Part shown: one piece after another, positions 18,806 to 37,798 of the stretch
Position numbering within the stretch: the first letter of the stretch is position 1
Layout of the letters: each line of letters begins with the position of its first letter
DNA from: Kiritimatiellia bacterium
GTDB lineage: Bacteria; Verrucomicrobiota; Kiritimatiellia; JAAZAB01
NCBI GenBank assembly: GCA_050944835.1
Contig: JBMNRV010000008.1
Location: forward strand, 7,001 to 71,000
Reading direction: 5' to 3'
Length of the DNA: 64,000 nucleotides
Made by a program: the position numbers and the translations under genes
The notes under the pieces: generated by a model
Databases searched by the model: none
Told to the model about the DNA's origin: nothing
The model's input: only the letters and a program-made list of their open reading frames with translations

Positions 18806-18834
18806 CGGGTTTTTCATGGAAGGAGTGAGAAGCT

Positions 18835-20476: not shown

Positions 20477-21429
20477 ATGATTTGCAGGTGCGTTATCCGG
20501 TCGGACGCCGCCGCTGGATCACAGCGGTGGACGGAGTATCCTTGACGGTGGCGGCTGGTGAAAGCGTCGGCCTGGTAGGCGAAAGCGGTTGCGGTAAAAG
20601 TACTTTAGGCAATGCTATTTTGCGCCTGACACCGATCAGCGGCGGTGGCGTACGCTTTGATGGCCGTTCCACTGCGGATTTGCGTGGGCGCGCATTACAA
20701 TCGTTCCGTCGGCGCGTACAGATGGTTTTTCAGGACCCATACGGCTCTTTAAATCCGCGCTTGACTATCGGCGCGGCGCTGGAAGAGGTCTTGGCGGTGC
20801 ATCGTCTCGGCAATCGCGCCGCCCGCATGGTGCGGGTGGCCGAATTATTACGGCAGACCGGTTTGGATCCGGATTATGCCCGGCGCTATCCGCATGAATT
20901 AAGCGGTGGCCAGCGGCAACGGGTCGGTATTGCCCGGGCCTTGGCGTTAAACCCGGTATTGATCATCGCTGACGAGCCGGTTTCGGCTTTGGATGTTTCC
21001 GTGCAAGCCCAGATTCTGCGCCTGATGCGCGATTTGCAGCGCGCCGCCGGCTTGGCATGGCTGTTCATTGCGCATGATTTGGCAGTGGTCAATTATATGT
21101 GTCAACGGGTATATGTCATGTATTTCGGCCGGATTATGGAGTCCGGACCTGCCAATGATATATTCAACCATCCGGCGCATCCATATACCAAAGCCTTATT
21201 GGCAGCCGTGCCGACACTGGATGCCGCCGCCGGGGGCAAATATTTGCAAAGCCGTGTGCTGCATGGGGAAACTCCTGCCGCAGGGAGCGCTATTGCCGGT
21301 TGCCCGTTTCATCCGCGCTGCGCGCATGCCAGGGATGTCTGTCGTGCGCAGATACCGCCGTTGACGGAAGAGGCGCCGGGTCGTTGGTGCCGCTGCCACC
21401 TGACATCTGATGTCAAGGTGGCCATCTGA
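20458..21429 (+). CDS. Oligopeptide/dipeptide ABC transporter ATP-binding protein (OppF-like)
   Basis: Start MPLLEVNDLQVRYP at 20458. Walker A GESGCGKST, signature LSGGQRQRV, Walker B LIIADEPVSALD, and C-terminal Cys/His cluster (CPFHPRCAHARDVC). Confidence 0.85.
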   Translation: MPLLEVNDLQVRYPVGRRRWITAVDGVSLTVAAGESVGLVGESGCGKSTLGNAILRLTPISGGGVRFDGRSTADLRGRALQSFRRRVQMVFQDPYGSLNPRLTIGAALEEVLAVHRLGNRAARMVRVAELLRQTGLDPDYARRYPHELSGGQRQRVGIARALALNPVLIIADEPVSALDVSVQAQILRLMRDLQRAAGLAWLFIAHDLAVVNYMCQRVYVMYFGRIMESGPANDIFNHPAHPYTKALLAAVPTLDAAAGGKYLQSRVLHGETPAAGSAIAGCPFHPRCAHARDVCRAQIPPLTEEAPGRWCRCHLTSDVKVAI

Positions 21430-21499: not shown

Positions 21500-22945
21500 A
21501 TGCTCTTCCCTACCATTGATTTTGCTCTGTTTTTCCTGATAGCCTTTGCTTTATGTTGGCTGCTGCGCCAATACTCGACGCTTTGGAAGTGGAGCATGCT
21601 TGCCGCCAGTTACTTCTTTTATGGCTATTGGGATTGGCGGTTTGTCGGATTGCTGATCGGATCAAGCGTAGTTAATCACCTTTTGGCATTATGGATTGAT
21701 CGCTCGGACCGCGTGAGTATGCGCCGCTTGGCGTTGACTTTAGCGTTGGTAATTAATTTGGGCGTGCTGGTGTTTTTTAAGTATGCCGCTTTTTTCGCGG
21801 AACAGGCCTTTTGGATACAACATCACTTTGCGGCTTCCGATGCCGCAGTTGCGGAACGATGGATACCATTGTTAAATTACTTGGGCACCATCATTCTGCC
21901 GGTAGGCATTTCCTTTTTTACCTTCCAGGCTCTGAGCTATGTCGCCGATGTCTATCGGCGGCAAATGAAGCCCGCTGACTGCTGGGTGGATGTGGCGCTC
22001 TTCCTGGCGTTTTTCCCGCAATTGGTAGCCGGCCCGATTGTGCGGGCGCGCGCTTTGATCGGCCAGTTAGCCGGACCGTTGACACCGCGGCGTCTGGACA
22101 TCGGCCGTGCCGCGCCGATGATTATGGGCGGGTTATTCAAGAAAATCGTTGTGGCCAATTATCTGGCGGAAAAAATAGTGGATCCGGTATTTGCGCGGCC
22201 GGACCTATACGGCACGTGGGATGCGCTCGTGGCAGTATATGCCTACGCCATCCAGATATACTGTGATTTTTCAGCCTACTCGGATATGGCCATCGGTTTT
22301 TGCCTGCTGTTGGGGTTCCATATTCCTTTGAATTTCGATGCCCCATACCTGGCCGGCTCTATCCGGAATTTCTGGCGTCGCTGGCATATGTCACTCTCTT
22401 TTTTCCTGCGGGATTACCTCTACATCCCATTGGGTGGGTCGCGTCGCGGTGAAGTCCGTACTTACGTCAACGTGATGGTGACATTCCTACTGGGCGGACT
22501 CTGGCACGGCGCGGGCTGGACTTTCATCATCTGGGGCGGATTGCACGGGGCTTATCAGATAGTGGAGCGCTTGATCGGCAAGTGGATTGGGAACCGTGTT
22601 CCAGATGGATTTGTCACCGACATCATACGCGGGTTGCTTGTCTGGCATTTTGTCTGTTTCGCTTGGCTGTTTTTCCGCTGCCAGACTTTTGGCGGCGCGG
22701 CGGCTATGTTGCAGGCGTTGATGCGTCTGGACCAACCGGTGCAATGCGCCGGCGGCATGGTGTTGGCGGTGATTGTAGTAGGGTATTTGACCCAACTGCT
22801 TGATGGTCGCCGCTGCGAGCGCTTCTGGGACATTTTCGGGCGCTGGCATCCGGTTTGGCAGGGGGTGGCGGTTGCAGTGGTGTTAACTTTGATTCTAGCG
22901 TTGGGCCCTAAGGGCGTTGCGCCATTTATTTATTTCCAATTTTAA
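21500..22945 (+). CDS. MBOAT-family membrane-bound O-acyltransferase (AlgI/DltB/PatA-like polysaccharide O-acetyltransferase)
   Basis: 481 aa, ~10 TM segments. AlgI-like N-terminus (MLFPTIDFALFFLIAFALCWLL). Conserved MBOAT His region (GGLWHGAGWTFIIWGGLHG). Confidence 0.8.
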   Translation: MLFPTIDFALFFLIAFALCWLLRQYSTLWKWSMLAASYFFYGYWDWRFVGLLIGSSVVNHLLALWIDRSDRVSMRRLALTLALVINLGVLVFFKYAAFFAEQAFWIQHHFAASDAAVAERWIPLLNYLGTIILPVGISFFTFQALSYVADVYRRQMKPADCWVDVALFLAFFPQLVAGPIVRARALIGQLAGPLTPRRLDIGRAAPMIMGGLFKKIVVANYLAEKIVDPVFARPDLYGTWDALVAVYAYAIQIYCDFSAYSDMAIGFCLLLGFHIPLNFDAPYLAGSIRNFWRRWHMSLSFFLRDYLYIPLGGSRRGEVRTYVNVMVTFLLGGLWHGAGWTFIIWGGLHGAYQIVERLIGKWIGNRVPDGFVTDIIRGLLVWHFVCFAWLFFRCQTFGGAAAMLQALMRLDQPVQCAGGMVLAVIVVGYLTQLLDGRRCERFWDIFGRWHPVWQGVAVAVVLTLILALGPKGVAPFIYFQF

Positions 22946-23001: not shown

Positions 23002-23316
23002 TTGCATGGAAGCAGCGGAAGGGTGAACGCAATGCGGGACAGTCATACAAAAGATCGGCGGGATATCGGCGAGCTGCGCGCGGAAAAACAGGCCGGTGTA
23101 TCGCTGCGCCACTTGGTTACGGCATTGCTGGTTTTTTATTTAGTTGCCGCTATTTTGAATGGGCGGCACTTGTACGAGGCGGCCGAACGCCGTCCATACG
23201 GGCCTGTCCGGAGCGTCTGGTTGGCGGCGCTGACGCCGGCGCGCGCCGTTTCGACAGCGCTTGGCGCAGATCGGTTGCGCGCGTCAGTGGAGGATCTGTT
23301 AATTCGGGATCATTAA
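23002..23316 (+). CDS. Hypothetical small membrane protein (104 aa, one TM) between the MBOAT and SGNH genes
   Basis: ORF with a single hydrophobic segment (LVTALLVFYLVAAIL). Its position mirrors the small accessory proteins in acetylation modules (AlgF/WssG-like), but there is no recognisable motif. Confidence 0.3.
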   Translation: MHGSSGRVNAMRDSHTKDRRDIGELRAEKQAGVSLRHLVTALLVFYLVAAILNGRHLYEAAERRPYGPVRSVWLAALTPARAVSTALGADRLRASVEDLLIRDH

Positions 23317-23317: not shown

Positions 23318-24073
23318 ATGAAAATCAAAATTGTAAAACGAGGACTGATGTGTTTGGCGGTCTGGGCCGCTGTGGTGGCGGTTGGGCGGCCCGGGCCGGA
23401 TTCGGCTGCGACGCAGGCTGTTCCGGCGCGCGTTTTGATTATTGGTGACTCCATGATGTGTTTGCCGTCGCATGCGCTGGAGCTGGCATTGGCCGGGCGC
23501 ACTGGTGTGACCACACGCGCTTACGCTTCCATCGGCACCGGATTGGCCCGCTTGGATTCGTTTGACTGGATGGAGAAAACCCGCTCATTGCTGCAAGAAT
23601 TCAATCCCGACATGACGTTGGTTTGGTTCGGCACCAACGATCGCCAGCCTATGCAGACTACCAACCGCATTGTCAAACTGGAAGAGCCGGAGTGGGAGGT
23701 GGAATATGCCGGACGCGTGAATGCCTTGATGACCTTGCTTCTTTCCGCCAACCCAACGGCGCGCGTGATGTGGCTGGAATTGCCCGATATGCGCGATGAA
23801 AAAATTCAGGCGGATGTGTTGTTGATCAATCGTTTGGTTCAAGCTGAGGCCGAGAAACACCAGCGGGTGGAATTCTTCGGTACGCGCGGGATATTGGGTT
23901 TTCGCGCCGGCAAGTTTACACCGTATGTCATCGGTTCCAAAGGATTGCCGGTTCAGGTGCGTGACCCGGATGGGATACACCTGAATCGCGCCGGAGCCGA
24001 CCGCTTGGCTGAATATATAGTTAAAGCAATCTATGAAACACCATCGGATGCGGAAACAAGTCAGGATCGTTAA
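23318..24073 (+). CDS. SGNH/GDSL-family hydrolase or acetyltransferase partner of the MBOAT (AlgJ/AlgX/PatB-like)
   Basis: Signal peptide. Block I GDS motif (VLIIGDSMM). Block III GTND-like (WFGTNDR). C-terminal DxxH-type catalytic region (DGIHLNRAGADR). Confidence 0.65.
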   Translation: MKIKIVKRGLMCLAVWAAVVAVGRPGPDSAATQAVPARVLIIGDSMMCLPSHALELALAGRTGVTTRAYASIGTGLARLDSFDWMEKTRSLLQEFNPDMTLVWFGTNDRQPMQTTNRIVKLEEPEWEVEYAGRVNALMTLLLSANPTARVMWLELPDMRDEKIQADVLLINRLVQAEAEKHQRVEFFGTRGILGFRAGKFTPYVIGSKGLPVQVRDPDGIHLNRAGADRLAEYIVKAIYETPSDAETSQDR

Positions 24074-27000
24074 TCGGGGATTGGCCTGGATCTGCTCGAT
24101 CTGGCTTGGAATTACGGCAGCGCCGACGGTATGGGCGCAAGATGCCTTAGAGTTATCCACGAATTTCTCATCGGCACAAGCTGTTGACGATGCCACAACC
24201 GCGGCAGTCGTTGCTCCGACCAATCTGGCGGCTGCCAAGCCCCTTGAAGTTGACCAAACAGTGCGCGCCCTGATGTATGAGGCCATGCTCAATGTGCAGG
24301 ATAAGCAATATGAAATAGCCATTCCCAAACTGGAGTCGGTGATTAAAGATGACCCGACTTTACTGGAAGCATGGTCAACACTGGGATGGGCATACTGGGC
24401 TTTGGATCGAAAACAAGATGCGGCAGAGCTCTGGCAGCGCCTGTTGAATATCGCCCCTAACGAACCGATGGGCTATAACCTGATGGCCCAGGTTGCTGTG
24501 TATGATGGCGATTTGACGCGCGCCGAAGAGCTTTTTGAGAAAAGCCTCACGTTAAATCCCGACCAATACGAAATGCGTATCTCATTGGCGCGCGTCCTGC
24601 TCTGGAATGGGAAAACCGAGCAGGCCGCCAAGGATTTGCGCCGGTTGCTGCAGGAGGATCGCGACCGGTTGGACGTGGAAATAGATTTGGCTTGGGCGAT
24701 GTATGCCAATGAGGAGTACGAGGATGTGCTGGAAGTCTGGAACCATATCAATGATGTGATTCCAGACCAGCCCGGTTATATGATGGCGCGCGCACAAGTC
24801 CTGTTGCTGATCGGCTCATTGACGGAGGCGGAAGCCGAAGCGCGCCGTATTCTGGAGATTGACCCTGGCAACCGGGATGCTTTCAACCTTTTGGCCAACC
24901 TGGCCATGCGTGCGCGCCGTCCTGAAGAAGCGATTGATGCTTTGCGCATAGTGTATGATATGGCGAAAACGGATGCCGTTCGGGCTGCGGTGGCGCTGCA
25001 AATCGCTTCCTACATGAAATCCGTGTATGATACCGATAAGACTGTTTTCACACTGTCGCAATGCTTGGATGCCGCTCATGATGCATATAAGTTGGACGAG
25101 GAAAATATTTCCTGCAAACTGTTTTATGGCGAGCTTCTGACTTCTGCCCGCCACTTCGATCGCGCTGAAGATGTTTTCCAATCGGTTATCAAAGAAAACA
25201 ATCCCTTCAACCTGCGCGCGCACATGGGGTTGGTGCACATCCTGTTGGCGAGCATGCAGCTTGATGAGGCGGAGAAGAAAATAAACGAAACCTTTCGCTT
25301 ATTTAATGTCGCTAATCCCTATCGTCACCTGTTATGGGCTCGGTTGCATTTTGCACGCGGCAATATTCCAGAGGCTATGGATGCCCTGGACCGCCTGGAG
25401 CGTGAAGGGGCTGCGGGCGCGGTCTTTACCCTGCTGTATCACGGGATCTCGCCCAGCGAATGGAGCGATGTGCCGTCGGTGCGCCAGTTCCGTGAGCACT
25501 TGATGGTGCTTCGGCGCGCTGGCTTTAAGTTTATTACACCATCGCAATTCAATGATTACTTTGCAAAACATGACAAGCCGCCGGCGGTGGAGGAGAAACG
25601 GTCGTTGCTTAGTCGCGCTCTGCAGGGGGTGCGTGCTTCTTGGAGCGGCCGACGGGTAGAGCAGGCGCAGCGTCTGTCAGATTATACTCCGGATATGACG
25701 GTGTGTGTGACGATGGACGATGCACTCCGCAATTCCTTGCGCTACGGCAATGTGGTGGCGGAAGAATTACAGGTGCCGATAACCATGTTTTTACCAGTCG
25801 GCAACATTTTGAAGCACGACACCTACACGGCTTCATTCAAGGAAATCCGTGACTATAATGCCTCCGGTTTATGGGAGATGCAAAGTCATCTCATGCAGGC
25901 AAGTTATCTCGCGATGACCAACCAGAACGGGCGTGAGGTCAACCCATTGCCGAATCTCGTCTGGTTGCCGGAAAAAAACCGTCAGGAGTCATTGCGCGAA
26001 TACCATGCCCGGCTGCGATATGAGTTTCGCGATTCGCGGCGGATTCTGGCGCGTGAGCTGGGGTTGGGAGAGTCGGAAATCAATGCTGTGGCATATCCCA
26101 TAGGTGACATCGGCCAGGAAACCACCTGCAATATTGATTTCTTCAATGTGCCGGAAGTGATTCTGAACGAAGCCGAGATCACCTACGCTCTGGGATTTAT
26201 CCAAGACGAATTCGGTTATTCCATGCCTTCCGACAACCCCATGCTTTACAAGCGTTATGAGCCCAAACGTTTTACTACCGGGCGTGAGGTGTATCGCGCG
26301 GCCATGCGCAACCATCCGGTATTCGCTGCGCGCCGCATGCGGGCTGAAATCGCGGCTCTGAGCGGTGAGCTGCATTTGGCCCAAGAAATGGTGCGCTTGT
26401 TGAAGCGCGATGGGTATCCCGAGGAAGATTTAGAGGAAATCAACACCATGGTTCATAAACATGTTGCCCGCCTGATGCATGTGCCGGAAACCGCCCCGGA
26501 TGATATTTCTATCAAAAAGGAAGTGTTGTTTGAGCCGCAAAAACCATTCTTGGCGGTCGAAGGCGATTTTACTAAGGCGAATGTAATGATCGAATCGTGG
26601 CATGGCGGCGCCGCCGCCGGGCTTAATCTGAATCCACGCTTGAGCCTGAACGTACGCGCCGGCATCGGCGGCATTAAGCAAACTGTGTTCTCCAACACAG
26701 TGGTTGAAGTTGAACAAACCAGCCGCTCTTCGTCTCGTTCCGATGTCACCATCATAACCGATGGGGAGACGATGCATCAGACTGAATACAGAACCACGGT
26801 TTCCACAGTGATGCTGCAATCCAACCGGGTTGATGAATATAAATACAAGGCCGACGAGCAGATGGTCGGCGCCGCTCTGAACTACATTCATACCCATGGC
26901 GCATACACCATGCTGGACCTGCGTTATCGCTCTTTCACCGGCGATGAATTGGATGAGGATGCCGGTGTCCTGGTCGGTTCCTTAGAACATCAATGGCGGC

Positions 27001-27614
27001 CGGTGCCGGCATTTGACACTTCTGTGCGTTACCAGCATGATCTTGTGCCGTCGGCGCGCAAGTTGCTGGAATACAATGGCTTTGCCCTGCGTGCCATCTG
27101 GCGGGTTAAGGATTGGTGGCACGCATCCACGTTTGGCGCGTTCTCCGTCTTTGATGACGATAATTCCCATTTGCATGCGAATGTCGAAAACTTGTGGCGG
27201 ATGTCAACCCGACACAATGTCTGGCTGGGTTTGCATGACTCGGTTGATACGGTGGATCGCGACAGCGATTTGTATTGGACGCCTTACTGGGATCAACGGC
27301 ATTATCTGGTGCTCCGGATCAGCCAGAGTTACCCGAATTATACTGCTGCGGCAAGGTTCCACTTGGGCTTGCAAAAAGAAAAGGCGCGTCAGGAGGACTT
27401 GGATGCATACAATACCGCCAAAGCCGCCGCCGAGGGAAAAGGTTGGTACCCAGGCAGCAATCCGCAGCAGGGTTGGAACTCATTATTGGGATTAGGGGTG
27501 ACGCTATCACGTCGCTGGCAAAGCGGCTGGGAGTTCAGTGGAGAATTTGTCGTCAATGCCATCCGCGACTATACCGAGCATACAATCAGCGGTCGCTTAA
27601 TGTATCGTTTTTAA
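24033..27614 (+). CDS. Exopolysaccharide export/modification protein. It has N-terminal TPR repeats, a central CE4 (NodB/PgaB-like) polysaccharide deacetylase-like domain, and a C-terminal outer-membrane beta-barrel (PgaA/BcsC/PelB-like porin).
   Basis: 1193 aa with signal peptide. Many TPR-like helices (AWSTLGWAYWALDRKQDAAELWQRLLNIAPNEP... and following). Central CE4-like motifs (VTMDDA ~ TFDDG; AYPIGDIGQ ~ RxPYG). The C-terminal ~450 aa are rich in amphipathic beta strands and end in ...RLMYRF (terminal aromatic OMP signature). Confidence 0.55.
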   Translation: MKHHRMRKQVRIVNRGLAWICSIWLGITAAPTVWAQDALELSTNFSSAQAVDDATTAAVVAPTNLAAAKPLEVDQTVRALMYEAMLNVQDKQYEIAIPKLESVIKDDPTLLEAWSTLGWAYWALDRKQDAAELWQRLLNIAPNEPMGYNLMAQVAVYDGDLTRAEELFEKSLTLNPDQYEMRISLARVLLWNGKTEQAAKDLRRLLQEDRDRLDVEIDLAWAMYANEEYEDVLEVWNHINDVIPDQPGYMMARAQVLLLIGSLTEAEAEARRILEIDPGNRDAFNLLANLAMRARRPEEAIDALRIVYDMAKTDAVRAAVALQIASYMKSVYDTDKTVFTLSQCLDAAHDAYKLDEENISCKLFYGELLTSARHFDRAEDVFQSVIKENNPFNLRAHMGLVHILLASMQLDEAEKKINETFRLFNVANPYRHLLWARLHFARGNIPEAMDALDRLEREGAAGAVFTLLYHGISPSEWSDVPSVRQFREHLMVLRRAGFKFITPSQFNDYFAKHDKPPAVEEKRSLLSRALQGVRASWSGRRVEQAQRLSDYTPDMTVCVTMDDALRNSLRYGNVVAEELQVPITMFLPVGNILKHDTYTASFKEIRDYNASGLWEMQSHLMQASYLAMTNQNGREVNPLPNLVWLPEKNRQESLREYHARLRYEFRDSRRILARELGLGESEINAVAYPIGDIGQETTCNIDFFNVPEVILNEAEITYALGFIQDEFGYSMPSDNPMLYKRYEPKRFTTGREVYRAAMRNHPVFAARRMRAEIAALSGELHLAQEMVRLLKRDGYPEEDLEEINTMVHKHVARLMHVPETAPDDISIKKEVLFEPQKPFLAVEGDFTKANVMIESWHGGAAAGLNLNPRLSLNVRAGIGGIKQTVFSNTVVEVEQTSRSSSRSDVTIITDGETMHQTEYRTTVSTVMLQSNRVDEYKYKADEQMVGAALNYIHTHGAYTMLDLRYRSFTGDELDEDAGVLVGSLEHQWRPVPAFDTSVRYQHDLVPSARKLLEYNGFALRAIWRVKDWWHASTFGAFSVFDDDNSHLHANVENLWRMSTRHNVWLGLHDSVDTVDRDSDLYWTPYWDQRHYLVLRISQSYPNYTAAARFHLGLQKEKARQEDLDAYNTAKAAAEGKGWYPGSNPQQGWNSLLGLGVTLSRRWQSGWEFSGEFVVNAIRDYTEHTISGRLMYRF

Positions 27615-27701: not shown

Positions 27702-30700
27702 CTACTCGAACAGCACGATGGCGTCTTGGGCATTGTCGGATTTGACGTCTGCGGCGGAGTCAGTCGGTGTGAGCAGCGGCATGGTGTGCGCGCGGCGCGG
27801 CCCGGCAAATATGCCGTTGAACGGGCAGAATTCACGGACTTCGACTATGCGCCGATCCTTATCGGTGCGCATAACCATGACGGTCTTGTTTGTGCCCAGC
27901 AAGCTGCGTTCTAGTTGCTCGCACCATTCCGCGCTTGGCATTCGATTGACCAACAAGGTCAACCCGTTCAGGTCTAATCCTTGTATCAATGCGAGCATCT
28001 CTGGTATTTTTAAAGTACGCAACGTGGCGGCGCGCACACATGGCAGGAGGCGGATTTGGTAATAGCGGCAGAGGATGCGTAAGTCGGTGAAGTCTTCATT
28101 CGTTTCACGCCGGAGCGTGCCGTCATCTTCTTGCATGAACCAGGGTGGGGCAATCGCGCTCAAGGTGCGCGTCCATGGTTGCAACATCTGAACATAATCG
28201 TCATCGGCCCATGATTCTGCGCGTGGTTTAAACACCCCGATGCGGACGGGCAACGGGCCGCCGCTGACTTCCCGCAGATGAACTTGCGCTACACCGAATT
28301 GCGGCGACCATGGCGCCAGTCCCCACCAACCCAATCCGATTTCGGGCGGGATCGGCAACGGAGCGCCGAAGGCCGGTTTGTCGTTGATGTAACACGACGC
28401 GCCGCAGCCGCGTAACTCCAGACGCAGGCGCACGTTTCCAGGCGGCTTGTTCCAGGCGCGAGTCTGGTTGGCGACAGTCTCGCCATTGTGCCAGACTTGC
28501 AGATAAAGCTGTCCAGTCTGCTCAAACCCGAATCGAATCATGTTCCCTTCACCGCGGCGGGCGTAGAGCCAGAAAAATCCGCGTGTGTCTTCCAACAGGG
28601 CTTCAATGAAACCGCTATGCATCGTGTCGGAACCGGTCAGTCGCAGCACTGCTTCCGTTTGAGCCGGCGCAGCGGTAAGGAGTGGAATTTCATCATCCTG
28701 GTCGGCGGGATCGCCGTAAATATTCCAGTTGGTTGAAATTTGGCCGACGGTGAATTCTTCACGCACGGGCACAGTACGCGGCAGCATTGCAGCGGCCATT
28801 GCGCGTTGCGTGGCGTTGGACGATTGTCGCGCCACATCATCCAGATAATTTATGAGCGGCCATGATTCCGGATGGCTCAGTAGATTCCAGCGCTCAATAA
28901 CCTGAAGCATTTGGCTTTCCATGGCCGGGTCGGCGGCGATTTTCATGATTTCCATGAGGTTGTTGAAGCGGTCGGCTGGTTTCTGGAGTAAGCGATGCAT
29001 CAGAGCGCGCGCGTCCAGATCGCTCGGGTTTTCCTGTATGAGTCGTTGAATTTTCGCCGCTGCGGCCTGCGGCTGTTTTTGAAACAGCAGGAGCTCCGCC
29101 TGCGCCAGTATGATGTCCGGGTTGTTGGGGAAGAGACGCTCATAGACATCCAGCAGGTTTCCGGCATCGTCGCCGCGCTGTGCTTTGGAATACATCAGGC
29201 GCGCACAGCGTACCACAAGGTCAATTTGTCCGGGGTCTTGTTCCAGACTGGCTTGATAGGCGCCAATGGCCGCCCCGATTTCATTCTGTTGCAGATAGGC
29301 ATCGGCGATCAGAGTCATCGGCTCGGCATTGCGTGGGTCCAGTACAGCCCATTGCCGCCAGATTTTAACTGCGTTGTCGAAGTCGCCGCGCTGCAAAGCG
29401 GCGTGGCCCTCTGTGCGCAAGATGTTAGGGCTGGCATCTTGCACCGCGTATGGATCGGCATCGCCGCCGGCCAGCTCATAGAAGGTGATTGGATGCTCAC
29501 TCTGTTCAGGCGTGGCCTTTACTACCGCGATCAAACGGTTAGCGCCGTTGGTTTGGCTCGATTTCAGGAGCGGTGAGTCTGGCGCCACGGCCACGGTTAA
29601 ATTGCTTATGCCTTGGAAGAGCGATGCCAGCGCGGGCACCTGTTCCCAGATTGGCGGTAGGCGCGCAATGATGGAGAGGTTGTGCTTGTTCAAATCCCGG
29701 CTGAACAACTGCAGCCATGTAGTGATCTGGGAAAGCGGCACGGATTGATCCATCTGACTCAGGTTAAGCAGCACGCCCTGCGCCGATAAGGCGGCCGCGT
29801 TGGCGGCAATTTCGCCGGACATGCCGTCTTTAATGCCATCCAGGTTTTCCAGAAAAATTTCCGGCTGAAACATAAGGCGATGAATTCGGGCGACGGCGCT
29901 GTAAAATTCGGCGTTCCAGCCGAATTGTTCGGCATGTCCACCGGCGAAAACCCGCATCCACGGCGGCGAAAAGTGCGTGTAGCGGAAGGCGTTGCGGCTG
30001 ATCCAGTATGCCATGTCGGCGTCGCGGTGGTCGGTCGGTGTAAATGTGATTAACGCCGGTTCGGCGGGCATAAGGTCCAGCGCGGTGATTTCCACGCTGG
30101 CATATCCACGCCGCGGATGCCAAAGGCTGCATCCTATCATACCGGGCCGGATTTCGCCGCGGGTGGAAATAATTTCCTTAAAAATAGGGTGGCCACCAGC
30201 CATGGCGAAAAACAAGCGATCGCGCAAGTAAATATCCAATTGCGCTTCACCGTCCGGTGTGGTGGTGTAACGTCCGGCGCTTAAAGTGAAAGGTTCCATA
30301 CCAGTGTGTTTCTGGCGGAGCCAGGCTTCGCCTTCCGGCGTCAGCACAAGATACAGGTAAGATTCGCCGTCGGGCGAGGCCCGCAAAAAGATGCCGAACT
30401 GTCCAGATTTGATCCGCGCCTGTAAGCGCAGGTGAAAAGCATTGTAAAGGTCGCTGCCGTTCAGCCAGACTTTGGCGCCGGTTGCATCCGGCTGGGCTTG
30501 CAGGATAGCGGAGCGCCCGGTGAGTTTGAATTCGCCCCAGTCCGGCAGCCATGCGAGCGGGGTGTTCATAATTTTCGGGCTGGTATATCCTTTCCGTTTA
30601 GGCCAGGCGTGTTCCAAGCGCTGCATCAGATCATCCGCTGTCCAATCCGATTGCACTAGCAATCGGTTCAGGCGGCGCGGATCAGTATGTCGGGTGTTCA

Positions 30701-31607
30701 GGGCGGTATTGCCATGGATAAAACCCAGATCATAGAAGTGGGAGACCAGGTGCATATTCAGGCGCCGGGTAAATAGCGCGCGTTCATCGTATTGCCCAAA
30801 ATCTCCGTATGGGAAAGCGTATGCGGTAGGAGGCTGGCCGAGTTCATCGGAGATGATTTTACGGCAGTATTCGTGGTCATCAATCAGGCGTTGGCGGAAG
30901 GCATCCGGTGTTTCATAACGCATTTCTCGCGGAAACCAGCGTGGAGTAGTCATGTAATTTCGTTTTTCGCCGGTGTTGTTGGCCAGAACTGTTTCAAATC
31001 CATGATGGCTCTGGGCGCCGGCTTCCCATGCGCCGCTGCGCACCATAGTGCGCACATACGGCCAACGCAACGCTGAAGGGTCTTCATCCATGATCGGTTT
31101 GGTCCAGAGAAACATGACGGCCTGCCACCCGGCGCGTTGCAGGACACGCCGCGCGTCGAAATACGAGGATTTGCGGGAGTGGTCAAAAGTCATCAGGATG
31201 GCTTTGCGCGGCAGCGGGCGGTTTTCACGGTAAAACGCTGTGATGTCGCGTAGAGTAATCGGATGGTATCCGGCCGCCCGTAATGCCTCAAATTGCGCGC
31301 GGAAACGTTCAGGGGTGAGTTCGCCGGGATTAGCGGAAATGCCTTGGTAAGCCAACGCCACAAATTCATAGGCATCGCGTGGGCCGACATCCGTCGGTCG
31401 GAACATAAAGACGCGCGTGACAGCGTAACGGATCGGTGTCCACCAAGCCGCTATCAGGCAGATGATAAGCATGAAGTAAAGCCAAGCTTGCCGATAGCTG
31501 GTCTTCAATGCCTGAACACGCGCCGGCACAATTGGCAGCTTGTCGGCGAGTCTTGACGGACGAGTTGCATCCGTCTGTTTGCCGTGCTGTTCGTTTTCAA
31601 ATTTCAT
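27702..31607 (-). CDS. Inner-membrane-anchored multidomain EPS-modifying protein. It has an N-terminal TM, a CE4 deacetylase-like domain (variant TFDH motif), TPR repeats, and a conserved ~330-aa C-terminal module of unknown function shared with the 33085..35415 product.
   Basis: 1301 aa. N-terminal TM (AWLYFMLIICLIAAWWTPI). CE4-like (ILMTFDHSRKSSY..., AFPYGDFGQ). TPR segment (FDNAVKIWRQWAVLDPRNAEP...AYLQQNEIGAAIGAYQASLEQDPGQ). C-terminal block GFIEALLEDTRGFFWLYARRGEGNMIRFGF...GLGWWGLAPW...GGPLPVRIG is almost colinear with the paralog. ATGA overlap with the upstream GT2 gene suggests translational coupling. Confidence 0.5.
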   Translation of the reverse strand: MKFENEQHGKQTDATRPSRLADKLPIVPARVQALKTSYRQAWLYFMLIICLIAAWWTPIRYAVTRVFMFRPTDVGPRDAYEFVALAYQGISANPGELTPERFRAQFEALRAAGYHPITLRDITAFYRENRPLPRKAILMTFDHSRKSSYFDARRVLQRAGWQAVMFLWTKPIMDEDPSALRWPYVRTMVRSGAWEAGAQSHHGFETVLANNTGEKRNYMTTPRWFPREMRYETPDAFRQRLIDDHEYCRKIISDELGQPPTAYAFPYGDFGQYDERALFTRRLNMHLVSHFYDLGFIHGNTALNTRHTDPRRLNRLLVQSDWTADDLMQRLEHAWPKRKGYTSPKIMNTPLAWLPDWGEFKLTGRSAILQAQPDATGAKVWLNGSDLYNAFHLRLQARIKSGQFGIFLRASPDGESYLYLVLTPEGEAWLRQKHTGMEPFTLSAGRYTTTPDGEAQLDIYLRDRLFFAMAGGHPIFKEIISTRGEIRPGMIGCSLWHPRRGYASVEITALDLMPAEPALITFTPTDHRDADMAYWISRNAFRYTHFSPPWMRVFAGGHAEQFGWNAEFYSAVARIHRLMFQPEIFLENLDGIKDGMSGEIAANAAALSAQGVLLNLSQMDQSVPLSQITTWLQLFSRDLNKHNLSIIARLPPIWEQVPALASLFQGISNLTVAVAPDSPLLKSSQTNGANRLIAVVKATPEQSEHPITFYELAGGDADPYAVQDASPNILRTEGHAALQRGDFDNAVKIWRQWAVLDPRNAEPMTLIADAYLQQNEIGAAIGAYQASLEQDPGQIDLVVRCARLMYSKAQRGDDAGNLLDVYERLFPNNPDIILAQAELLLFQKQPQAAAAKIQRLIQENPSDLDARALMHRLLQKPADRFNNLMEIMKIAADPAMESQMLQVIERWNLLSHPESWPLINYLDDVARQSSNATQRAMAAAMLPRTVPVREEFTVGQISTNWNIYGDPADQDDEIPLLTAAPAQTEAVLRLTGSDTMHSGFIEALLEDTRGFFWLYARRGEGNMIRFGFEQTGQLYLQVWHNGETVANQTRAWNKPPGNVRLRLELRGCGASCYINDKPAFGAPLPIPPEIGLGWWGLAPWSPQFGVAQVHLREVSGGPLPVRIGVFKPRAESWADDDYVQMLQPWTRTLSAIAPPWFMQEDDGTLRRETNEDFTDLRILCRYYQIRLLPCVRAATLRTLKIPEMLALIQGLDLNGLTLLVNRMPSAEWCEQLERSLLGTNKTVMVMRTDKDRRIVEVREFCPFNGIFAGPRRAHTMPLLTPTDSAADVKSDNAQDAIVLFE

Positions 31608-33088
31608 CCGCTACCCCGTGTTCCCCATTTGCCGTGTGAAAGGGTGGCTAAGGCATAATAAATTTGCCAACTGAAAAACACGACATATGTGAATGTAAAC
31701 ACAAATCCCGCCCACCAATGTTTGCGGCCGGTTTTTTGCAGGTGGAAGATTGACCAGATCAACGTCATGGCCAATACGCCGACAGCGTATGAAAGTGTAA
31801 TACCGCCAGTTAGAAGCGGCGCTAAAACGAGCGCCTGCAGGATGATGAACGGCTCAATAACCGGCAAAAACATCATGGCGTACCAAGACAGCGCGGGCAC
31901 AGGATGTTTGCGCCAGATGAATGTGGTTGCGCCGATCATCCCGTGCAGGGAGGAGCGCATCCAGCGCGCCTGTTGCCGGATATATTGCCGCCAGTTTTCC
32001 GGCACAATGGTTGTCGCCAACGCGTCGTCATCATACAGAATGCGGTAGTCGCGCAATACCAGGTTGGTCAGACTGCGATCGTCACCGTAGCGTCCTTCCA
32101 CCCCGAAGACTTTTTCGTTCATCCATTCTTCCATGACATGTAGGATGCAAACCCGACGGTAAGCGGAGAAACAGCCCGGCAGGCAACTGACCATTCCGAA
32201 GATGCTTTCCGATGCCTTCATGATCTTATACGAAAAGAAATAGCGCACATCCTGCATCTTGGTCAACACATTGACGCGGGAGTTTTCCACGTCCGTGTGG
32301 CCGGCAATTCCCCCCACCATCGGATCAATGAATCCCTGTACCAGCTTGCTGACGGCGCCTGGCATCAGGAATGTGTCGGAATCAACGAAAACAATTATAT
32401 CACTGCGCGCCAACAGGGCAGCGCAGGACATCCCATAGGAAAGGCCGCGGTTGAATTCAAAATCCACCACTATCAGACTTCGGAACCGTGCTTGAGCGCG
32501 CATCATTTCCGCCAGAGTATTGTCAGTGGAGCCGTCGTTGACGACGATGACTTCGAGCAACTCATGCGGGTAGCCTTCGGCATACACCCGCGCGATTGAG
32601 CGCGCAATAGCTTTATCTTCATTCATACAGGGTATAGCCACAGTTGTCGGCGGCCTAAATCCTACATCGGGCGGCGGTGCGTAAAAAGCTGCGAAAATGA
32701 AGCGTGAAATAATAAAAATACCGACCACTAAACTGTAAATATTGACGACGGGGGCATACCAGTAATGCTCCATATTGATTACTTGAAAATACACTGCCGT
32801 GGTCAGCAACAAGATGCCTAAGGTGCCGAGCAGTATTATCCCCCAGATCGGCAGTTTGTTATAAAGAAATTTACGGCGCTCTTCCGCGTCTATTTCATGC
32901 GGCAATTCGGCGGGGGGTGGCGGGGTAAACGATGAAAGCGTCAGCGCGCCGCGGCAAAATGGACAAACAGACGGCGTCGGCGCTTCAATGACACTGATTG
33001 AAAGGCGGCAGGCAGGGCATCGGGCCTTAGTGCCGCCGGTTGCGGAAGACGCGGAATTATTGGTAGATGGATGTGTAGAAGAAGTCAT
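31604..33088 (-). CDS. Processive family-2 glycosyltransferase (HasA/NodC/chitin-synthase-like N-acetylglucosaminyl-type synthase) with N-terminal C4 zinc-ribbon and multiple TM helices
   Basis: GT2 catalytic motifs: VIVVNDGSTDNT (DxD-region), FVDSDT, GDDRSLTNLVL (compare HasA GDDRCLTNYA), and QQARW (the QxxRW motif of processive beta-glycan synthases). N-terminal CPACR...CPFCRG zinc ribbon. About 6 TM segments flank the catalytic domain. Confidence 0.85.
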   Translation of the reverse strand: MTSSTHPSTNNSASSATGGTKARCPACRLSISVIEAPTPSVCPFCRGALTLSSFTPPPPAELPHEIDAEERRKFLYNKLPIWGIILLGTLGILLLTTAVYFQVINMEHYWYAPVVNIYSLVVGIFIISRFIFAAFYAPPPDVGFRPPTTVAIPCMNEDKAIARSIARVYAEGYPHELLEVIVVNDGSTDNTLAEMMRAQARFRSLIVVDFEFNRGLSYGMSCAALLARSDIIVFVDSDTFLMPGAVSKLVQGFIDPMVGGIAGHTDVENSRVNVLTKMQDVRYFFSYKIMKASESIFGMVSCLPGCFSAYRRVCILHVMEEWMNEKVFGVEGRYGDDRSLTNLVLRDYRILYDDDALATTIVPENWRQYIRQQARWMRSSLHGMIGATTFIWRKHPVPALSWYAMMFLPVIEPFIILQALVLAPLLTGGITLSYAVGVLAMTLIWSIFHLQKTGRKHWWAGFVFTFTYVVFFSWQIYYALATLSHGKWGTRGSG

Positions 33089-35415
33089 AAAAGCAATATG
33101 GCGTTTGGCGCCTCATGGTCAATCGGCGCAAATTCTTCCGCCATGGCTGGCAGCTCAGGCGGGAGGATTACAGGCAGTATATGTGTGCGCCGCGGCGCGG
33201 GAAACAAGCCGACATGCGCACAGATTTCACGCACCTGCGCGGACGGTTTATTTTCATCCTGCATGACGATCATCAGCGTCAGCGTAGTGTGCAACAGCGC
33301 TTGTTCAGCGGCGGCCAGCCATTCCGGGTTCGGCATCTTGTGCACCAGGATTGTCAAGCCATCGGTGCGGTCGGTGCGCGCCAGTTCGATCAACTCATCA
33401 AAATTCAAGCGATTCGGATGCTCAGTTGCCACCGATGGCAGCAGGCGTACACGATAATAACGGCACAGGAGACGACAATCCATGTCGTCGTCTGTTTTGA
33501 TTGTGGCGATGGCGCCATTCGTGTTTTGGCGATACCAGGCTGGGGCCAGTGCGCTGAGCTCGTGCATACGACTTTTCAGTTGCCGGATTTTTTCCGCCGA
33601 CAATTTACCCTGACAATCCTCATCCTGGGAGGTGGGTGGGATTCCGATACGCACCGGGAGCGGACCTCCTTTCAATCCACGGATGACAGCTCCCGCGCCG
33701 CCGGGCTGCTGACTCCATGGCGCAAATCCCCACCAGCCTAAGCCCATGTCATTCGGTATCGAGAGGGGTGAGCTAAAGGCAGGCGCGTCATCCACGAAAG
33801 CGACGGCGCCATCGCCGCGCAGGTCCAGACGCATTCGCACCGCGCCTTGTCGGCACTGCCGGACACGGTTGTAATTTACGAGCAATTGGCCGTTAAGCCA
33901 GTTTTGCAGGTAAATCCGGTTGTTTTCGTCAAATCCGAACCGAATCATATTGCCTGAGCCGCGGCGGGCATACATCCAGAAAAATCCTCGACTGCTTTCA
34001 ACTACGGCCTCGATAAAACCGTTGGGCATGGATTCCGAACGAGTCAGACGCAGGGATACTTCCGATTGTTTGGCTGCGGTGTCCAGGATCAGGCGGCCGT
34101 GTTGGAATAGGTTGCCATCCTTTGACGCCGCCCAGTCTTGCGACATGCGACCGTGCCGAAATTCTTCTATTGCCGGAGTCTGGCGCGGGAGGAAGTCGGT
34201 GAAAAAGCAGCGTTGTTCGGGTGTGGTTGCCCGCTCCGCCTCCTGTGCGATGAAATTCAGCAACATCCATGATTCCGGGTGGCTCAATAGGTCATGTTCA
34301 CGGATATTGGACGCCAAGGCCGACGCCATGCCGGGACGTTCCGCCGTCGCCAACATAGCGCGCAAGTTATCGAAGCGTTCGCGCATGCTGGGCAATAGGT
34401 CATGCAGCAGGGCCAGCGCCTGCATCTTGTCGGCATCGGATTTGTCCATGCCGCCGTCAATCACTTGTTTGGCAAGGGCACGGGCTTCATCGTGTCGGTG
34501 CCGGCGCACAAGCCAAGCAGCCTGAGCGAGCGCCACCATGGAGTTGTTCGGGAAAATCCGGGCGTAAAAATTCAACAGATCGCGTGCCGCTTCAGGTTTT
34601 CCAGCGGCTGTATCCAGCAGGCGCGCCTTGCGCATGGCCAGCTCAATCTGGCCGGGATAAACTTGCAAGCTGCGGCGGTAATATTGCATGGCTTGTTCTA
34701 TATCGTCAGTAAAAAGATAGACGTCGCCGATGAGCGAAAGAGGTTCAAAGTTTTCCGGCTCCAGCTCGTGCCATTGGGTCCAGATTTTAACCGCATTGGT
34801 GAAGTTGCCGGCATTGAAAGCGTTCCATCCTTCTTGACGCAAGGCATGCGCCCGTAGCTCGGATGTCCAGCGCTCTTCGCGGGTGGGCAAGTCGGATAAT
34901 TCATAATACAAAGCCAATTCCATATCATGGGGCAGATCGGCATAATTGCGTTCGGGCGGCGGCAGGAGCGGCGTCATGGAAGCGCTGAGGGTGACGCCGG
35001 TATAGCTTTCGTAGCCGTGAATCAACAGGTGGTAAACACCCTCTGGTGGCTGTTCGATTTTGATGTCCTCAGTATTGCCCAGTACGAACGGCCGATAGTC
35101 ATATTCGCGCAGGGACGGTTGGTTGGTTTGGGATAGATACAAATCGGCGTCGCCGTCGCCGCCATCCATTGTGATTATCAGGTTTACTTGTCCGGTCTGC
35201 ACGGCAATTGTGAAATACAGAAGTGAGCCCTTCTCGCCGGACAGGTTGGAGATCGTCTGTCCGGCTTGCAGAACGTGCGGTGCGGCAATGTTTTCAATTT
35301 GCGTGGGCGGCGCCGCGACGGCGTCCGGATCGGCGCCTTCCGCCAGGCGTATGATCGGTCCGATGCAGAGCATCAAGATGGCCGTGCGTATAAATATGGA
35401 TTTATTTTTGTGCAT
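33085..35415 (-). CDS. Secreted TPR-repeat protein with N-terminal PPC/pre-peptidase-C-terminal-like beta-sandwich. Paralog of the 27702..31607 C-terminal two-thirds (shared TPR block plus conserved ~330-aa C-terminal module).
   Basis: Signal peptide (MHKNKSIFIRTAILMLCIGPIIRLAEG). PPC-like segment (LYFTIAVQTGQVNLIITMDGGDGDADLYL...). TPR (FTNAVKIWTQWHELEPENFEP...). C-terminal block GFIEAVVESSRGFFWMYARRGSGNMIRFGF...GLGWWGFAPW...GGPLPVRIG. ATGA overlap with the GT2 start. Confidence 0.5.
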   Translation of the reverse strand: MHKNKSIFIRTAILMLCIGPIIRLAEGADPDAVAAPPTQIENIAAPHVLQAGQTISNLSGEKGSLLYFTIAVQTGQVNLIITMDGGDGDADLYLSQTNQPSLREYDYRPFVLGNTEDIKIEQPPEGVYHLLIHGYESYTGVTLSASMTPLLPPPERNYADLPHDMELALYYELSDLPTREERWTSELRAHALRQEGWNAFNAGNFTNAVKIWTQWHELEPENFEPLSLIGDVYLFTDDIEQAMQYYRRSLQVYPGQIELAMRKARLLDTAAGKPEAARDLLNFYARIFPNNSMVALAQAAWLVRRHRHDEARALAKQVIDGGMDKSDADKMQALALLHDLLPSMRERFDNLRAMLATAERPGMASALASNIREHDLLSHPESWMLLNFIAQEAERATTPEQRCFFTDFLPRQTPAIEEFRHGRMSQDWAASKDGNLFQHGRLILDTAAKQSEVSLRLTRSESMPNGFIEAVVESSRGFFWMYARRGSGNMIRFGFDENNRIYLQNWLNGQLLVNYNRVRQCRQGAVRMRLDLRGDGAVAFVDDAPAFSSPLSIPNDMGLGWWGFAPWSQQPGGAGAVIRGLKGGPLPVRIGIPPTSQDEDCQGKLSAEKIRQLKSRMHELSALAPAWYRQNTNGAIATIKTDDDMDCRLLCRYYRVRLLPSVATEHPNRLNFDELIELARTDRTDGLTILVHKMPNPEWLAAAEQALLHTTLTLMIVMQDENKPSAQVREICAHVGLFPAPRRTHILPVILPPELPAMAEEFAPIDHEAPNAILLL

Positions 35416-37798
35416 TCTTGGTGGCCGCAGGCTCTTTGTTTTGGGCTGAACGCGGTTGATTTGCCGGTGTTAAAATTTCCGGCAAATCACGGAGCAAACC
35501 GTGGTTGAGCGCGTAAATCGCATAACCGTCAGCGCCGGCGCTCAGAGCGTCCTGAATTTGACTCAACATTTCCGGCGGCGTCAGCCTGGCAGCGCTGGAA
35601 GCGACACCGATTCCCGGAAGTACGCGTCCGGCAGCGCCGGGTAATGCGATTTGCGCGGTTGTCCATGCGGCAAACTCACCCGGGTTGGCAGTGTAGTTCA
35701 TGGGGCAAACAAAATCAAGAGCATCTTCCCGCAACCATTCTCCCCAGTTTTGGCCTTCCGTTCCGACGCATTCCGGGTAATGCGGGTAAACCGCGGCGGA
35801 TATTATAATGCCGGGTCGGCGCTGACGGAGGCGTTTCGAACAGGCGTTGACGAACTCGCTGATTTGCTGTGCCCGCCATTTGCGGTATTGTTCCCCCAAT
35901 GCGCCGGTCTGAGCCGCCAAGGGCCAAGCGGTTGTTTCCGGCGCATTGACGGCTGCGAAAAACTCTTTCCGGCAAGCCAAACAGCAACAATGCTGGCTGT
36001 CGGGGTAGCGTATGTAATCCAAGTGCAGCCCGTCCGTTGTCACGGCATCGGCCAATTCTTCCAGGCGTGCCAGTTCTAATTCGCGGTTCCGGGTTTGAGA
36101 GGGACAGAGCCAAGCGGTTGTTTGGAATCCAAAGGATTGTTGCAGGCGACCGTCTTGTTCCATTTTTTTGATTTGTGTTGCCGCCAGGCCATCCAGATTC
36201 CAGCAGATATACCAGATATGCGTTTTCAGTCCATTACGGCGGCAGGCTTCAAAAACATCCCGATTCGGATCGGTGTCGCGTGGCACGTGAAGAAAGACAT
36301 CGGTCAATCCGGCAGCAGCCAATTTGGGCGCCACTCGATCCCAGTTTTCTGCCTGCATGGGTGTGCCTACCCAGATGCAGCGCCGTCCCTGGCCCAACTT
36401 CGGCATATTCGCGGCGGCGCGGGCATTCAGCGCTGCTGATAGTTTGTCCGTTAGCCGCCAAGCGGCGGCTGGGTCGCCGGCGTTCAGGACGGCGCGGGCT
36501 TGGTCGCGTAAACTGCGCAGGTCATCAACATCAACGGCATGTTCCCATTCCATAGGGATAGGGCTTGCAGCCAGAACATCGTCCAGTGTGTGCCGTGCGG
36601 CGGCAGCCAGAGTTCCCGGTAGAAATTGATCGAGCAGGGCGGCCAACATGTGCCGCTGCGCTGCGGCATCATCCGCCTGCGGAACATGTGGCATCCAGAT
36701 GCCTTTCGGGGAAGATAAACAGGCGGCTTCGGATTGCCGACGCCCTTGAGCATCGAGCCACCATGCCAGGGTTTTAGTTTCCTTGCTGGCTGCGGATGCC
36801 GTAATCAGGTAGGTGGCGCCGGCTTGAAACACCTGCGGCGGTCCCTGCCAGCTGGGCGCCGTCGCGAAACTCATGGCATGCCAACGGCCTGGACGTTCAG
36901 CGGCGGTGTAGCCGCCGGGTTGCACTCCCATAAGGTTGCCTAGTTTGGCATCGCCACTGTAGCAGACGAATAGGTATCCCTGGCGTTCCAAGTGGCGTTG
37001 AATGTTTTTTAACATTGCGGGTGTAAGATGCGGGTGGCACGGCAGAATCAGCATCCGGTAACGCTGTGGCAAGCTCCGTGAGGCCAGGTCCTCGTCGGAG
37101 ATCATGGCGTAAGGCAGTCCCATTTCCGATAATTGCATACCGATCCAATTAGCGATGCTAGCGCCGAAAGCGCGCTCGGCGGCATTGGCAAACACCTCCG
37201 CCCCGGGCCTGGCGATTGCAATTGCCGCCGATTTGTGGCGCGCCGCATGCAGAATCAGGCGCCCAGCCCCGCGTTTTGCCGACCACGGTGATACGCGATA
37301 GCCTGATGTTGCGCTCCACCCGTCCGGGACGCCCTGGTCTTCAAAATCTGATTTGGGAATCCAATGCCGGGTACGTCCCTGACGCACAGGCAAGGCCGCT
37401 GCGCGCCAGCCTTTGCCAGCGCGCCAGTACCAAGTAATGGATTGAAAAGCGCCCGGATTATCGCAGGTGTATTCCACTTCCAAGCCGTCGGACGCGCTCA
37501 AATCAACTTGGAGGTCGCAATCCCAATAATGCCGGATAGCGTCAGGCATGAACGGGCAAAAGAAGTCTTGTCCATTCGGGGCGTCTCTCACCAGTGGCGT
37601 AAGCGGGCCAGGCTGCCATGCGGAAACTGCATCCGGCAATAAAGACTGGTCGGAATATGCTGGCGGGATGCAAACCGCGCAAAAAAACAATCCTAAAAAC
37701 AACAGTTGGCAAGTTTGCCGTAGATATGCGGCAGCACACTGGCGAATACGGATGGACACAGATGTCACAATTCCATTTCGGGGCATCAGGTATCTCAT
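35402..37798 (-). CDS. GHL10-family glycosyl hydrolase-like protein (YddW/DigH, YngK-like; DUF187) with N-terminal additional domain; putative GlcNAc-glycan hydrolase of the EPS operon
   Basis: 798 aa with signal/TM N-terminus. C-terminal half carries GHL10 hallmarks (TIM-barrel segment ...GLTDVFLHV..., LHLDYIRYP motif, Cys-rich CCCLAC). First gene of a 4-gene overlapping operon (14-nt overlap with the 33085..35415 gene). Confidence 0.55.
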   Translation of the reverse strand: MRYLMPRNGIVTSVSIRIRQCAAAYLRQTCQLLFLGLFFCAVCIPPAYSDQSLLPDAVSAWQPGPLTPLVRDAPNGQDFFCPFMPDAIRHYWDCDLQVDLSASDGLEVEYTCDNPGAFQSITWYWRAGKGWRAAALPVRQGRTRHWIPKSDFEDQGVPDGWSATSGYRVSPWSAKRGAGRLILHAARHKSAAIAIARPGAEVFANAAERAFGASIANWIGMQLSEMGLPYAMISDEDLASRSLPQRYRMLILPCHPHLTPAMLKNIQRHLERQGYLFVCYSGDAKLGNLMGVQPGGYTAAERPGRWHAMSFATAPSWQGPPQVFQAGATYLITASAASKETKTLAWWLDAQGRRQSEAACLSSPKGIWMPHVPQADDAAAQRHMLAALLDQFLPGTLAAAARHTLDDVLAASPIPMEWEHAVDVDDLRSLRDQARAVLNAGDPAAAWRLTDKLSAALNARAAANMPKLGQGRRCIWVGTPMQAENWDRVAPKLAAAGLTDVFLHVPRDTDPNRDVFEACRRNGLKTHIWYICWNLDGLAATQIKKMEQDGRLQQSFGFQTTAWLCPSQTRNRELELARLEELADAVTTDGLHLDYIRYPDSQHCCCLACRKEFFAAVNAPETTAWPLAAQTGALGEQYRKWRAQQISEFVNACSKRLRQRRPGIIISAAVYPHYPECVGTEGQNWGEWLREDALDFVCPMNYTANPGEFAAWTTAQIALPGAAGRVLPGIGVASSAARLTPPEMLSQIQDALSAGADGYAIYALNHGLLRDLPEILTPANQPRSAQNKEPAATKNAQK

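Follow-up and report, generated by a model that had tools for sequence, protein, structure and literature searches.

A conserved single-chain protein of Kiritimatiellia combines a TPR array, a PgaB-type deacetylase fold and a predicted outer-membrane beta-barrel

In the machinery for poly-N-acetylglucosamine (PNAG), the polymer is deacetylated and exported by separate proteins. Two of these, PgaA, the E. coli PNAG export porin (PDB 4Y25; relatives HmsH and BpsA), and PgaB, whose N-terminal CE4 domain it shares with IcaB and BpsB (PDB 4F9D, 3VUS, 4WCJ, 5BU6), are among the closest known counterparts of the protein described here, the product of a 1193-codon open reading frame (ORF) at 24033-27614 (+) in a 64,000-nucleotide stretch of Kiritimatiellia bacterium DNA (GenBank assembly GCA_050944835.1, contig JBMNRV010000008.1, positions 7,001 to 71,000 of the forward strand; hereafter the window). 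For both PNAG and Pel, the deacetylase works well only when docked on the tetratricopeptide repeat (TPR) arm of the porin, and the passage of polymer from enzyme to pore has so far been modelled rather than seen. BcsC and PelB, the TPR-porins for cellulose and Pel (PDB 6TZK, 9B8H, 9H80), serve different polymers, and PelB partners the lipoprotein PelC. In E. coli, the porin-proximal TPR region of PgaA (residues 221-515) binds the PgaB deacetylase domain (residues 22-309) and raises its activity, and the PgaB substitution D115A abolishes activity (PMC9384988). The original prediction for this ORF, made from the sequence alone, held that enzyme and porin are separate in known systems; to this there is a published exception, the BcsZ-BcsC fusion of Zymomonas (PMC7112194). 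The same survey of exopolysaccharide (EPS) operons lists glycosyltransferase-PgaB fusions as well as the BcsZ-BcsC fusion, but no fusion of the PgaA-PgaB type.

In the window, a TPR array, a CE4-fold domain and a predicted barrel lie in one uninterrupted frame without an internal stop, and we think it likely that the 1193-aa protein forms the outer-membrane terminus of a synthase-dependent EPS pathway. Its parts are as follows (AF2, AlphaFold2; pLDDT, predicted local distance difference test score):

24033..24137, + strand: start codon and signal peptide, residues 1-35, ending in PTVWA before QD (direct reading of the sequence)
24138..24251, + strand: N-terminal linker, residues 36-73, low-confidence and probably disordered (AF2 pLDDT <50 across residues 21-73)
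24252..25412, + strand: TPR superhelix, residues 74-460, 22 helices in about 11 repeat pairs (Pfam, AF2, Foldseek)
25422..26267, + strand: PgaB/IcaB-type CE4 deacetylase-fold domain, residues 464-745, catalytic positions H470, D562, D563, H619 and S624
26280..26465, + strand: four-helix linker from CE4 to barrel, residues 750-811 (AF2 secondary structure)
26538..27611, + strand: 16-stranded outer-membrane beta-barrel of the PgaA/BcsC/PelB class, predicted, residues 836-1193, with C-terminal Phe
26640..26888, + strand: very long, Thr/Ser-rich beta-hairpin of barrel strands 3 and 4, residues 870-952 (DSSP, AF2)
27390-27440, + strand: helix, residues 1120-1136, in the barrel loop between strands 13 and 14 (AF2)

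The full-length AF2 model, built on 51 homologs, has a mean pLDDT of 84.7 and a predicted template-modelling score (pTM) of 0.75. The single 1193-aa frame with a signal peptide was borne out, the latter by inspection: the N-terminus, MRKQVRIVNRGLAWICSIWLGITAAPTVWA followed by QD, has a positively charged n-region, a hydrophobic core and an AxA-like site, and by eye looks like a Sec signal peptide. All of the motifs quoted in the prediction are in place (VTMDDA at residues 559-564, AYPIGDIGQ at 687-695 and the C-terminal MYRF), as is the N-terminal TPR array, for which Pfam gives strong matches (TPR_19 at E 8e-34, TPR_16 at E 2e-27 and others) over the 22 AF2 helices of residues 74-460. These helices have a pLDDT of about 90, and their Foldseek matches are the TPR regions of OGT, SPY and BcsC. 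A Pfam scan of the whole 1193-aa protein returned TPR families only, a full-length hidden Markov model (HMM) search of the PDB gave TPR matches throughout, and Foldseek with the full-length model was dominated by TPR proteins, with PgaB first appearing at rank 47.

When the middle domain is searched by itself, the PDB matches of its profile to PgaB, IcaB and BpsB have E-values of 2e-12 to 2e-8; those to other CE4 enzymes (E >1e-4) are weaker by four orders of magnitude or more. The CE4 fold of the original prediction, a NodB-homology (beta/alpha) barrel, is supported, specifically as one of the PgaB/IcaB subgroup; precomputed PF01522 matches are present in many homologs. Compared with PgaB, which is a lipoprotein, and IcaB, which is secreted, this CE4 domain is embedded in an outer-membrane protein, and it carries an insertion of about 35 residues (510-545) that is absent from PgaB. 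The AF2 model contains no GH153-like hydrolase domain such as that at the C-terminus of PgaB, and the sequence has no lipobox. The claim that PgaA and PgaB functions are combined in one protein therefore holds for the PgaA part and for the N-terminal deacetylase half of PgaB, and not for the hydrolase part.

In the AF2 model, residues 836-1192 form 16 beta-strands with both termini facing the same side, a high-confidence barrel prediction that falls specifically in the PgaA/BcsC/PelB class: a C-terminal 16-stranded barrel is preceded by periplasmic TPRs in the same chain. The expected beta-rich C-terminal region is thus present, at about 360 aa (836-1193) rather than about 450, and it is preceded by a 60-residue helical linker. 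This linker (750-811) is highly conserved (HPVF.ARRMRAE...LLKRDGYPEED), with P762, A766, R767, R770, E772, R792, D793 and P796 as invariant columns. The chain ends in RLMYRF, and F1193 is kept in at least 90% of the 51 homologs; together with the signal-like N-terminus, this C-terminal aromatic residue (beta-signal) suggests a substrate of the beta-barrel assembly machinery. Because of the AF2 model and the profile matches, we regard both proposed folds as present, each in the PNAG-machinery subgroup of its class.

The barrel was identified by structure comparison, sequence methods having failed. The last 377 residues match no Pfam family, the barrel profile gives only noise against the PDB (E >0.3), and neither Pfam nor NCBIfam holds a model for it. 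DSSP gives the two hairpin strands (3 and 4) some 40 residues apiece (pLDDT about 70), much more than a membrane span, and by strand counting in the model the hairpin should project outside the cell. Its length comes from an insertion of about 34 residues (57 versus 23-26 residues in distant members), found in most of the family and absent from members P0043 and P0051-P0056. The helix at 1120-1136 is amphipathic and may be a gate or plug candidate; it counts as extra relative to PgaA because PgaA aligns over only 265 residues. A crude strand-phase count of charges in the barrel lumen (19 acidic versus 19 basic) was uninformative.

The fusion is conserved. More than 70 relatives, at 24-89% identity and from Kiritimatiellia, Lentisphaerae and other metagenome-assembled genomes (MAGs) of the Planctomycetes-Verrucomicrobia-Chlamydiae (PVC) group, keep a single-frame architecture of about 1100-1290 aa, and in the 51 full-length homologs (1111-1262 aa) the three regions share one frame. 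With residues 459-1193 as the query, 57 clusters were recovered, all from Kiritimatiellia or Verrucomicrobia MAGs and 29-100% identical; almost all of them are 1111-1262 aa long and fully covered, and their only annotation is 'tetratricopeptide repeat protein'. Scanning GTDB with one genome per species gave 60 loci, all in Kiritimatiellia, Lentisphaerae or the PVC group, one of them from a cultured isolate, B1221. The barrel ends an open frame of about 1000-1500 codons in 20 of the 23 GTDB loci checked (down to 24% identity; one of the 20, L036, runs off its contig). The three exceptions, loci L050, L062 and L064, are single frame changes, which in L050 and L064 fall inside domains. In L062 (9857-10001, a Lentisphaerales MAG) the frame switches right at the junction of CE4 linker and barrel (residues 810/838). 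This is the sole hint of a split gene, and a frameshift error is the probable cause, because a separate barrel piece would not have a signal peptide.

When 1.84 billion representative proteins were searched exhaustively with an HMM of the barrel, only 91 matched. In the long ones (about 900 aa or more) the barrel begins at around residue 530-1230 and is always C-terminal, and the shorter ones resemble contig fragments. From these results we take the barrel family to be a C-terminal part of multidomain proteins; none of the matches is clearly a stand-alone barrel. The orthologs thus agree with the prediction in that the three regions do not occur as separate ORFs in the 51 homologs, in 20 of 23 GTDB loci or in the long HMM matches.

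The weakest match of the first search, P0057, led to a sister family in Elusimicrobiota, whose proteins (1020-1198 aa) run from TPRs through a CE4 domain bearing canonical motifs to a beta-rich C-terminal region that has Phe as its last residue, the same order as here. Aligned with hhalign, the PVC and Elusimicrobiota families match at 100% probability (E 6e-76) over 982 columns and residues 72-1190, and the barrel profile alone matches the Elusimicrobiota C-terminus at E 2e-5 (probability 76%, 192 columns). In a complete Elusimicrobiota genome, a 636-aa family-2 glycosyltransferase (GT2) is encoded about 3.4 kb upstream of the homolog, and neither an MBOAT nor a DUF459 gene lies nearby.

The catalytic residues of the CE4 domain vary across the family. 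Aligned to E. coli PgaB (numbering verified), H55/D114/D115/H184/H189 correspond to H470/D562/D563/H619/S624. In PgaB, D115, H184 and H189 form the metal triad, D114 is the catalytic base and H55 the catalytic acid. Among the 51 aligned homologs, H470 and H619 are each conserved in 41, D563 in 45 and D562 in all; D562 and R566 are invariant across the family. The pentad is distributed as follows over 73 family members:

HDDHH (fully canonical): 15 members and 2 partial sequences
HDDHG: 20 members
HDDHS, including this protein: 13 members
two or more residues lost (e.g., TDGQY, GDGRG): about 20 members

The genes around the porin gene point to a polysaccharide pathway. Within the window, the cluster contains:

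21500..22945, + strand: MBOAT acyltransferase (PatA/AlgI/DltB-like), first of a four-gene module (Pfam MBOAT E 6e-28; NCBIfam DltB E 3e-46, below cutoff)
23032..23316, + strand: small single-pass membrane protein, 94 aa from the first Met (translation; no Pfam match)
23318..24073, + strand: periplasmic DUF459/PatB-family SGNH protein that carries a GDS motif and a signal peptide of its own (Pfam DUF459 E 6e-51; NCBIfam PatB E 3e-20, below cutoff)
27702..31607, - strand, convergent: 1301-aa inner-membrane-anchored protein with a PgaB-like CE4 domain and TPRs (NCBIfam PgaB E 6e-30; PF01522 E 4e-9)
31604..33088, - strand: processive GT2, putative polymer synthase (Pfam Glycos_transf_2, Chitin_synth_2)
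33085..35415, - strand: PPC-domain and TPR protein, 776 aa, conserved in the cluster (Pfam, co-occurrence)
35402..37798, - strand: GHL10/DUF4015-type glycoside-hydrolase-like protein, 798 aa (Pfam GHL10 E 2e-6, 27.6 bits versus a cutoff of 27.9)

The MBOAT gene, the small transmembrane ORF, the PatB-type SGNH gene and the porin gene form a conserved module in this order, and the ATG of the porin gene overlaps the final 41 nt of the DUF459 gene. An MBOAT gene lies upstream of the porin homolog in 25 of the 31 loci with enough flank, and in 23 of the 31 both MBOAT and DUF459 genes immediately precede it. In the most distant clade, the genes for GT2, CE4-TPR protein, MBOAT, small ORF, DUF459 and porin are colinear. 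DUF459 is the PatB family of peptidoglycan O-acetyltransferases, whose partner is the MBOAT protein PatA, and PatB uses chitooligosaccharides in vitro (PMC9487903). The arrangement here differs from PatA/PatB in that the scores stay below the PatB and DltB equivalog cutoffs and the PatB-like protein is split into a transmembrane ORF and a signal-peptide SGNH ORF. These two ORFs are one base apart and together look like PatB divided into membrane anchor and catalytic domain, a split conserved in the distant loci L001 and L003. In both of these, an 80-96-aa ORF occupies the position of the small ORF, and tblastn finds matches in many loci. As in the alginate system (AlgI/AlgJ/AlgX; cf. WssH/WssI), acylation genes stand beside the TPR/porin export step.

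EPS porins are encoded with a processive inner-membrane GT2, and the window holds one. Its NCBIfam matches, both below cutoff, are NodC at E 4e-43 and PgaC at E 4e-32; in the PDB it matches hyaluronan synthases at E 2e-22 and chitin synthases at E 5e-10. A GT2 was found in 20 of 62 related loci despite short contigs, and in L003/L004 and L040-L046 it is colinear. The 1301-aa neighbour carries the CE4 pentad Q-D-H-Q-F, and its pentad is degenerate in 22 of 22 orthologs checked, with the catalytic acid, one metal Asp and both metal His residues lost in each; on sequence grounds this domain is a conserved pseudo-deacetylase. Because it is degenerate in every ortholog examined, the porin-borne CE4 domain is the sole plausible deacetylase of the cluster. 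Pfam gives no match for residues of about 300-720 and 900-1301 of the 1301-aa protein, and there is no terminator-like site between its gene and the convergent porin gene.

Among the other neighbours, the PPC-TPR protein was considered as a possible second barrel, and this was rejected after hhalign found no similarity to the barrel profile. A GHL10/DUF4015 gene also lies near the porin homolog in L004, and no PDB relative of the GHL10 protein was found. An oligopeptide-type ABC transporter with two permeases and two ATPases is encoded directly upstream of the MBOAT gene (16457-21429, +), with a HAD-family hydrolase gene (18835-19449) between its permease and ATPase genes; L007 has the HAD gene upstream as well. 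Farther away, some 16 kb before the cluster (5271-7724, +), a gene encodes an 817-aa protein with hexosaminidase domains of family GH20. Dispersin B, which degrades PNAG, belongs to this family too, and the 817-aa protein could be a matrix-turnover enzyme. Downstream of the porin in distant relatives are a response regulator and a KaiC/RecA-type ATPase (PF06745), sometimes with AAA_22 (L001 13379-15631; L003 13953-15560), which may be a conserved regulatory module of the system.

If the 1193-aa protein does terminate a synthase-dependent EPS pathway, the steps could be as follows. The hyaluronan/chitin/NodC-like GT2 would make a GlcNAc-containing (N-acetylglucosamine) polymer and translocate it across the inner membrane, and the MBOAT protein and PatB-type SGNH pair would O-acylate it in the periplasm. 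The TPR arm of the 1193-aa protein would then receive the chain. The CE4 domain, flanked by the porin-proximal TPR end on one side and the barrel on the other, would bind it and, where the active site is intact, de-N-acetylate it just before it is threaded into the barrel for export. The fusion would thus be a covalent version of the docking, non-covalent in E. coli, of the PgaB deacetylase domain on the porin-proximal PgaA TPRs (221-515).

Several observations weigh against this reading. The structural evidence for the family is entirely predicted, and the barrel has no similarity to PgaA at the sequence level: aligned with the E. coli PgaA barrel by hhalign, its profile reaches a probability of 0.3%. 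The PgaA equivalog TIGR03939 (PGA_TPR_OMP) scores 31.7 bits against a cutoff of 366.65, over TPR residues 150-246 only. The isolated middle region scores 15.2 bits for PF01522 (Polysacc_deac_1), below the gathering threshold of 23.1, and the PgaB model TIGR03938 reaches 26.2 bits against a cutoff of 321.9, over residues 600-693 only. The GT2 is nearer to hyaluronan synthase, chitin synthase and NodC than to PgaC. This copy keeps four of the five PgaB catalytic residues, the second metal-binding His (PgaB H189) being Ser624, and position 622 is Gln, where most HDDHG and HDDHS relatives have Asp. Finally, about 20 of the 73 relatives have lost two to four catalytic residues, so the CE4 domain is retained even without catalysis.

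The last of these observations bear on the alternative that survives best, a plausible one that we lean slightly against, in which the CE4 domain would be a pseudoenzyme in this particular protein, binding and guiding the polysaccharide or buttressing the TPR-barrel junction. The protein would then be a PgaA-like porin with a lectin-like module. Besides Ser624 and the relatives with several residues lost, the subclade to which this protein belongs (P0002-P0005) also lacks the Asp622 typical of HDDHG/HDDHS members, and the degenerate CE4 fold in all orthologs of the 1301-aa neighbour indicates that a non-catalytic CE4 domain is tolerated in the system. However, the base D562, the metal ligands D563 and H619 and the acid H470 are present here and kept in about 80% of the 51 homologs, the pentad is complete in 15 relatives, and the cluster offers no other plausible deacetylase. 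Given Ser at the position of PgaB H189, deacetylase activity of this copy is not assured. One of the three canonical ligands is missing from its metal site, and catalysis may therefore be weakened, changed or absent while a guiding role persists; from the residues present, we regard catalysis by this copy as uncertain.

It is unlikely that the CE4 domain is instead an O-acetyl esterase trimming the O-acyl groups added by the MBOAT/PatB-type pair, as Ape1 does beside PatA/PatB. The CE4 family does include acetylxylan O-esterases (CAZy), and the porin gene is almost always the last of the MBOAT, small ORF and DUF459 module. Yet the closest sequence relatives are the PNAG N-deacetylases PgaB, IcaB and BpsB, which also dominate the structural matches, and the Elusimicrobiota sister family has a canonical CE4 domain with no MBOAT/DUF459 genes nearby. 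We reject as very improbable a barrel of other use (a Slam-like or Omp85-type protein translocon, or a general porin) with TPRs and CE4 domain acting on peptidoglycan, a reading that could draw on a sub-threshold match to Pfam TPR_Slam (32.4 bits versus a cutoff of 35.2) and on upstream genes that belong to the PatA/PatB peptidoglycan O-acetylation families. An assembly or sequencing frameshift fusing TPR, deacetylase and porin genes, for which we found no support beyond the three MAG loci with frame changes, is rejected and deserves next to no credence, as one continuous frame recurs in more than 70 independent assemblies from many environments, at 24-100% identity, and the interdomain linkers are conserved.

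We return to the reading of the 1193-aa protein as the outer-membrane terminus of an EPS pathway. The original prediction had called a fused deacetylase-exporter a new architecture for EPS secretion, and for a deacetylase-fold domain and exporter this stands: the fusion is not in the published survey (PMC7112194), and the relatives are annotated only as TPR proteins. In the published BcsZC fusion, a glycoside hydrolase is joined to the porin, at a place relative to the TPRs that the published text leaves unstated; here the CE4 domain lies between TPRs and barrel. A literature search found no paper joining 'synthase-dependent' to these phyla, and the combination is undescribed there. All of the parts are of known kinds, and we conclude that this is a real variant of synthase-dependent EPS export and not a new principle. 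It is tempting to go further and speculate, with rather more doubt than belief, that the PVC and Elusimicrobiota families make up a fifth type of synthase-dependent EPS system. In such a system the only competent deacetylase would be inside the porin, so that modification would be obligatorily coupled to export; the GT2 and the PatA/PatB-type pair would supply an O-acylated GlcNAc polymer, and the dead inner-membrane CE4 domain would act as a hand-off module.

These results will be of interest mainly to specialists in polysaccharide secretion. The single-chain version fixes the stoichiometry and geometry of the enzyme-porin complex and is therefore an attractive target for cryo-electron microscopy and for studying how modification is coupled to export. 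Active sites in this one family range from canonical to dead, a natural experiment on the conditions under which such a module can give up its enzyme function. PVC-group bacteria and Elusimicrobiota are abundant in guts, rumen, sediments and anaerobic digesters; for them, the finding would mean a dedicated matrix-polysaccharide pathway that annotation has so far missed.

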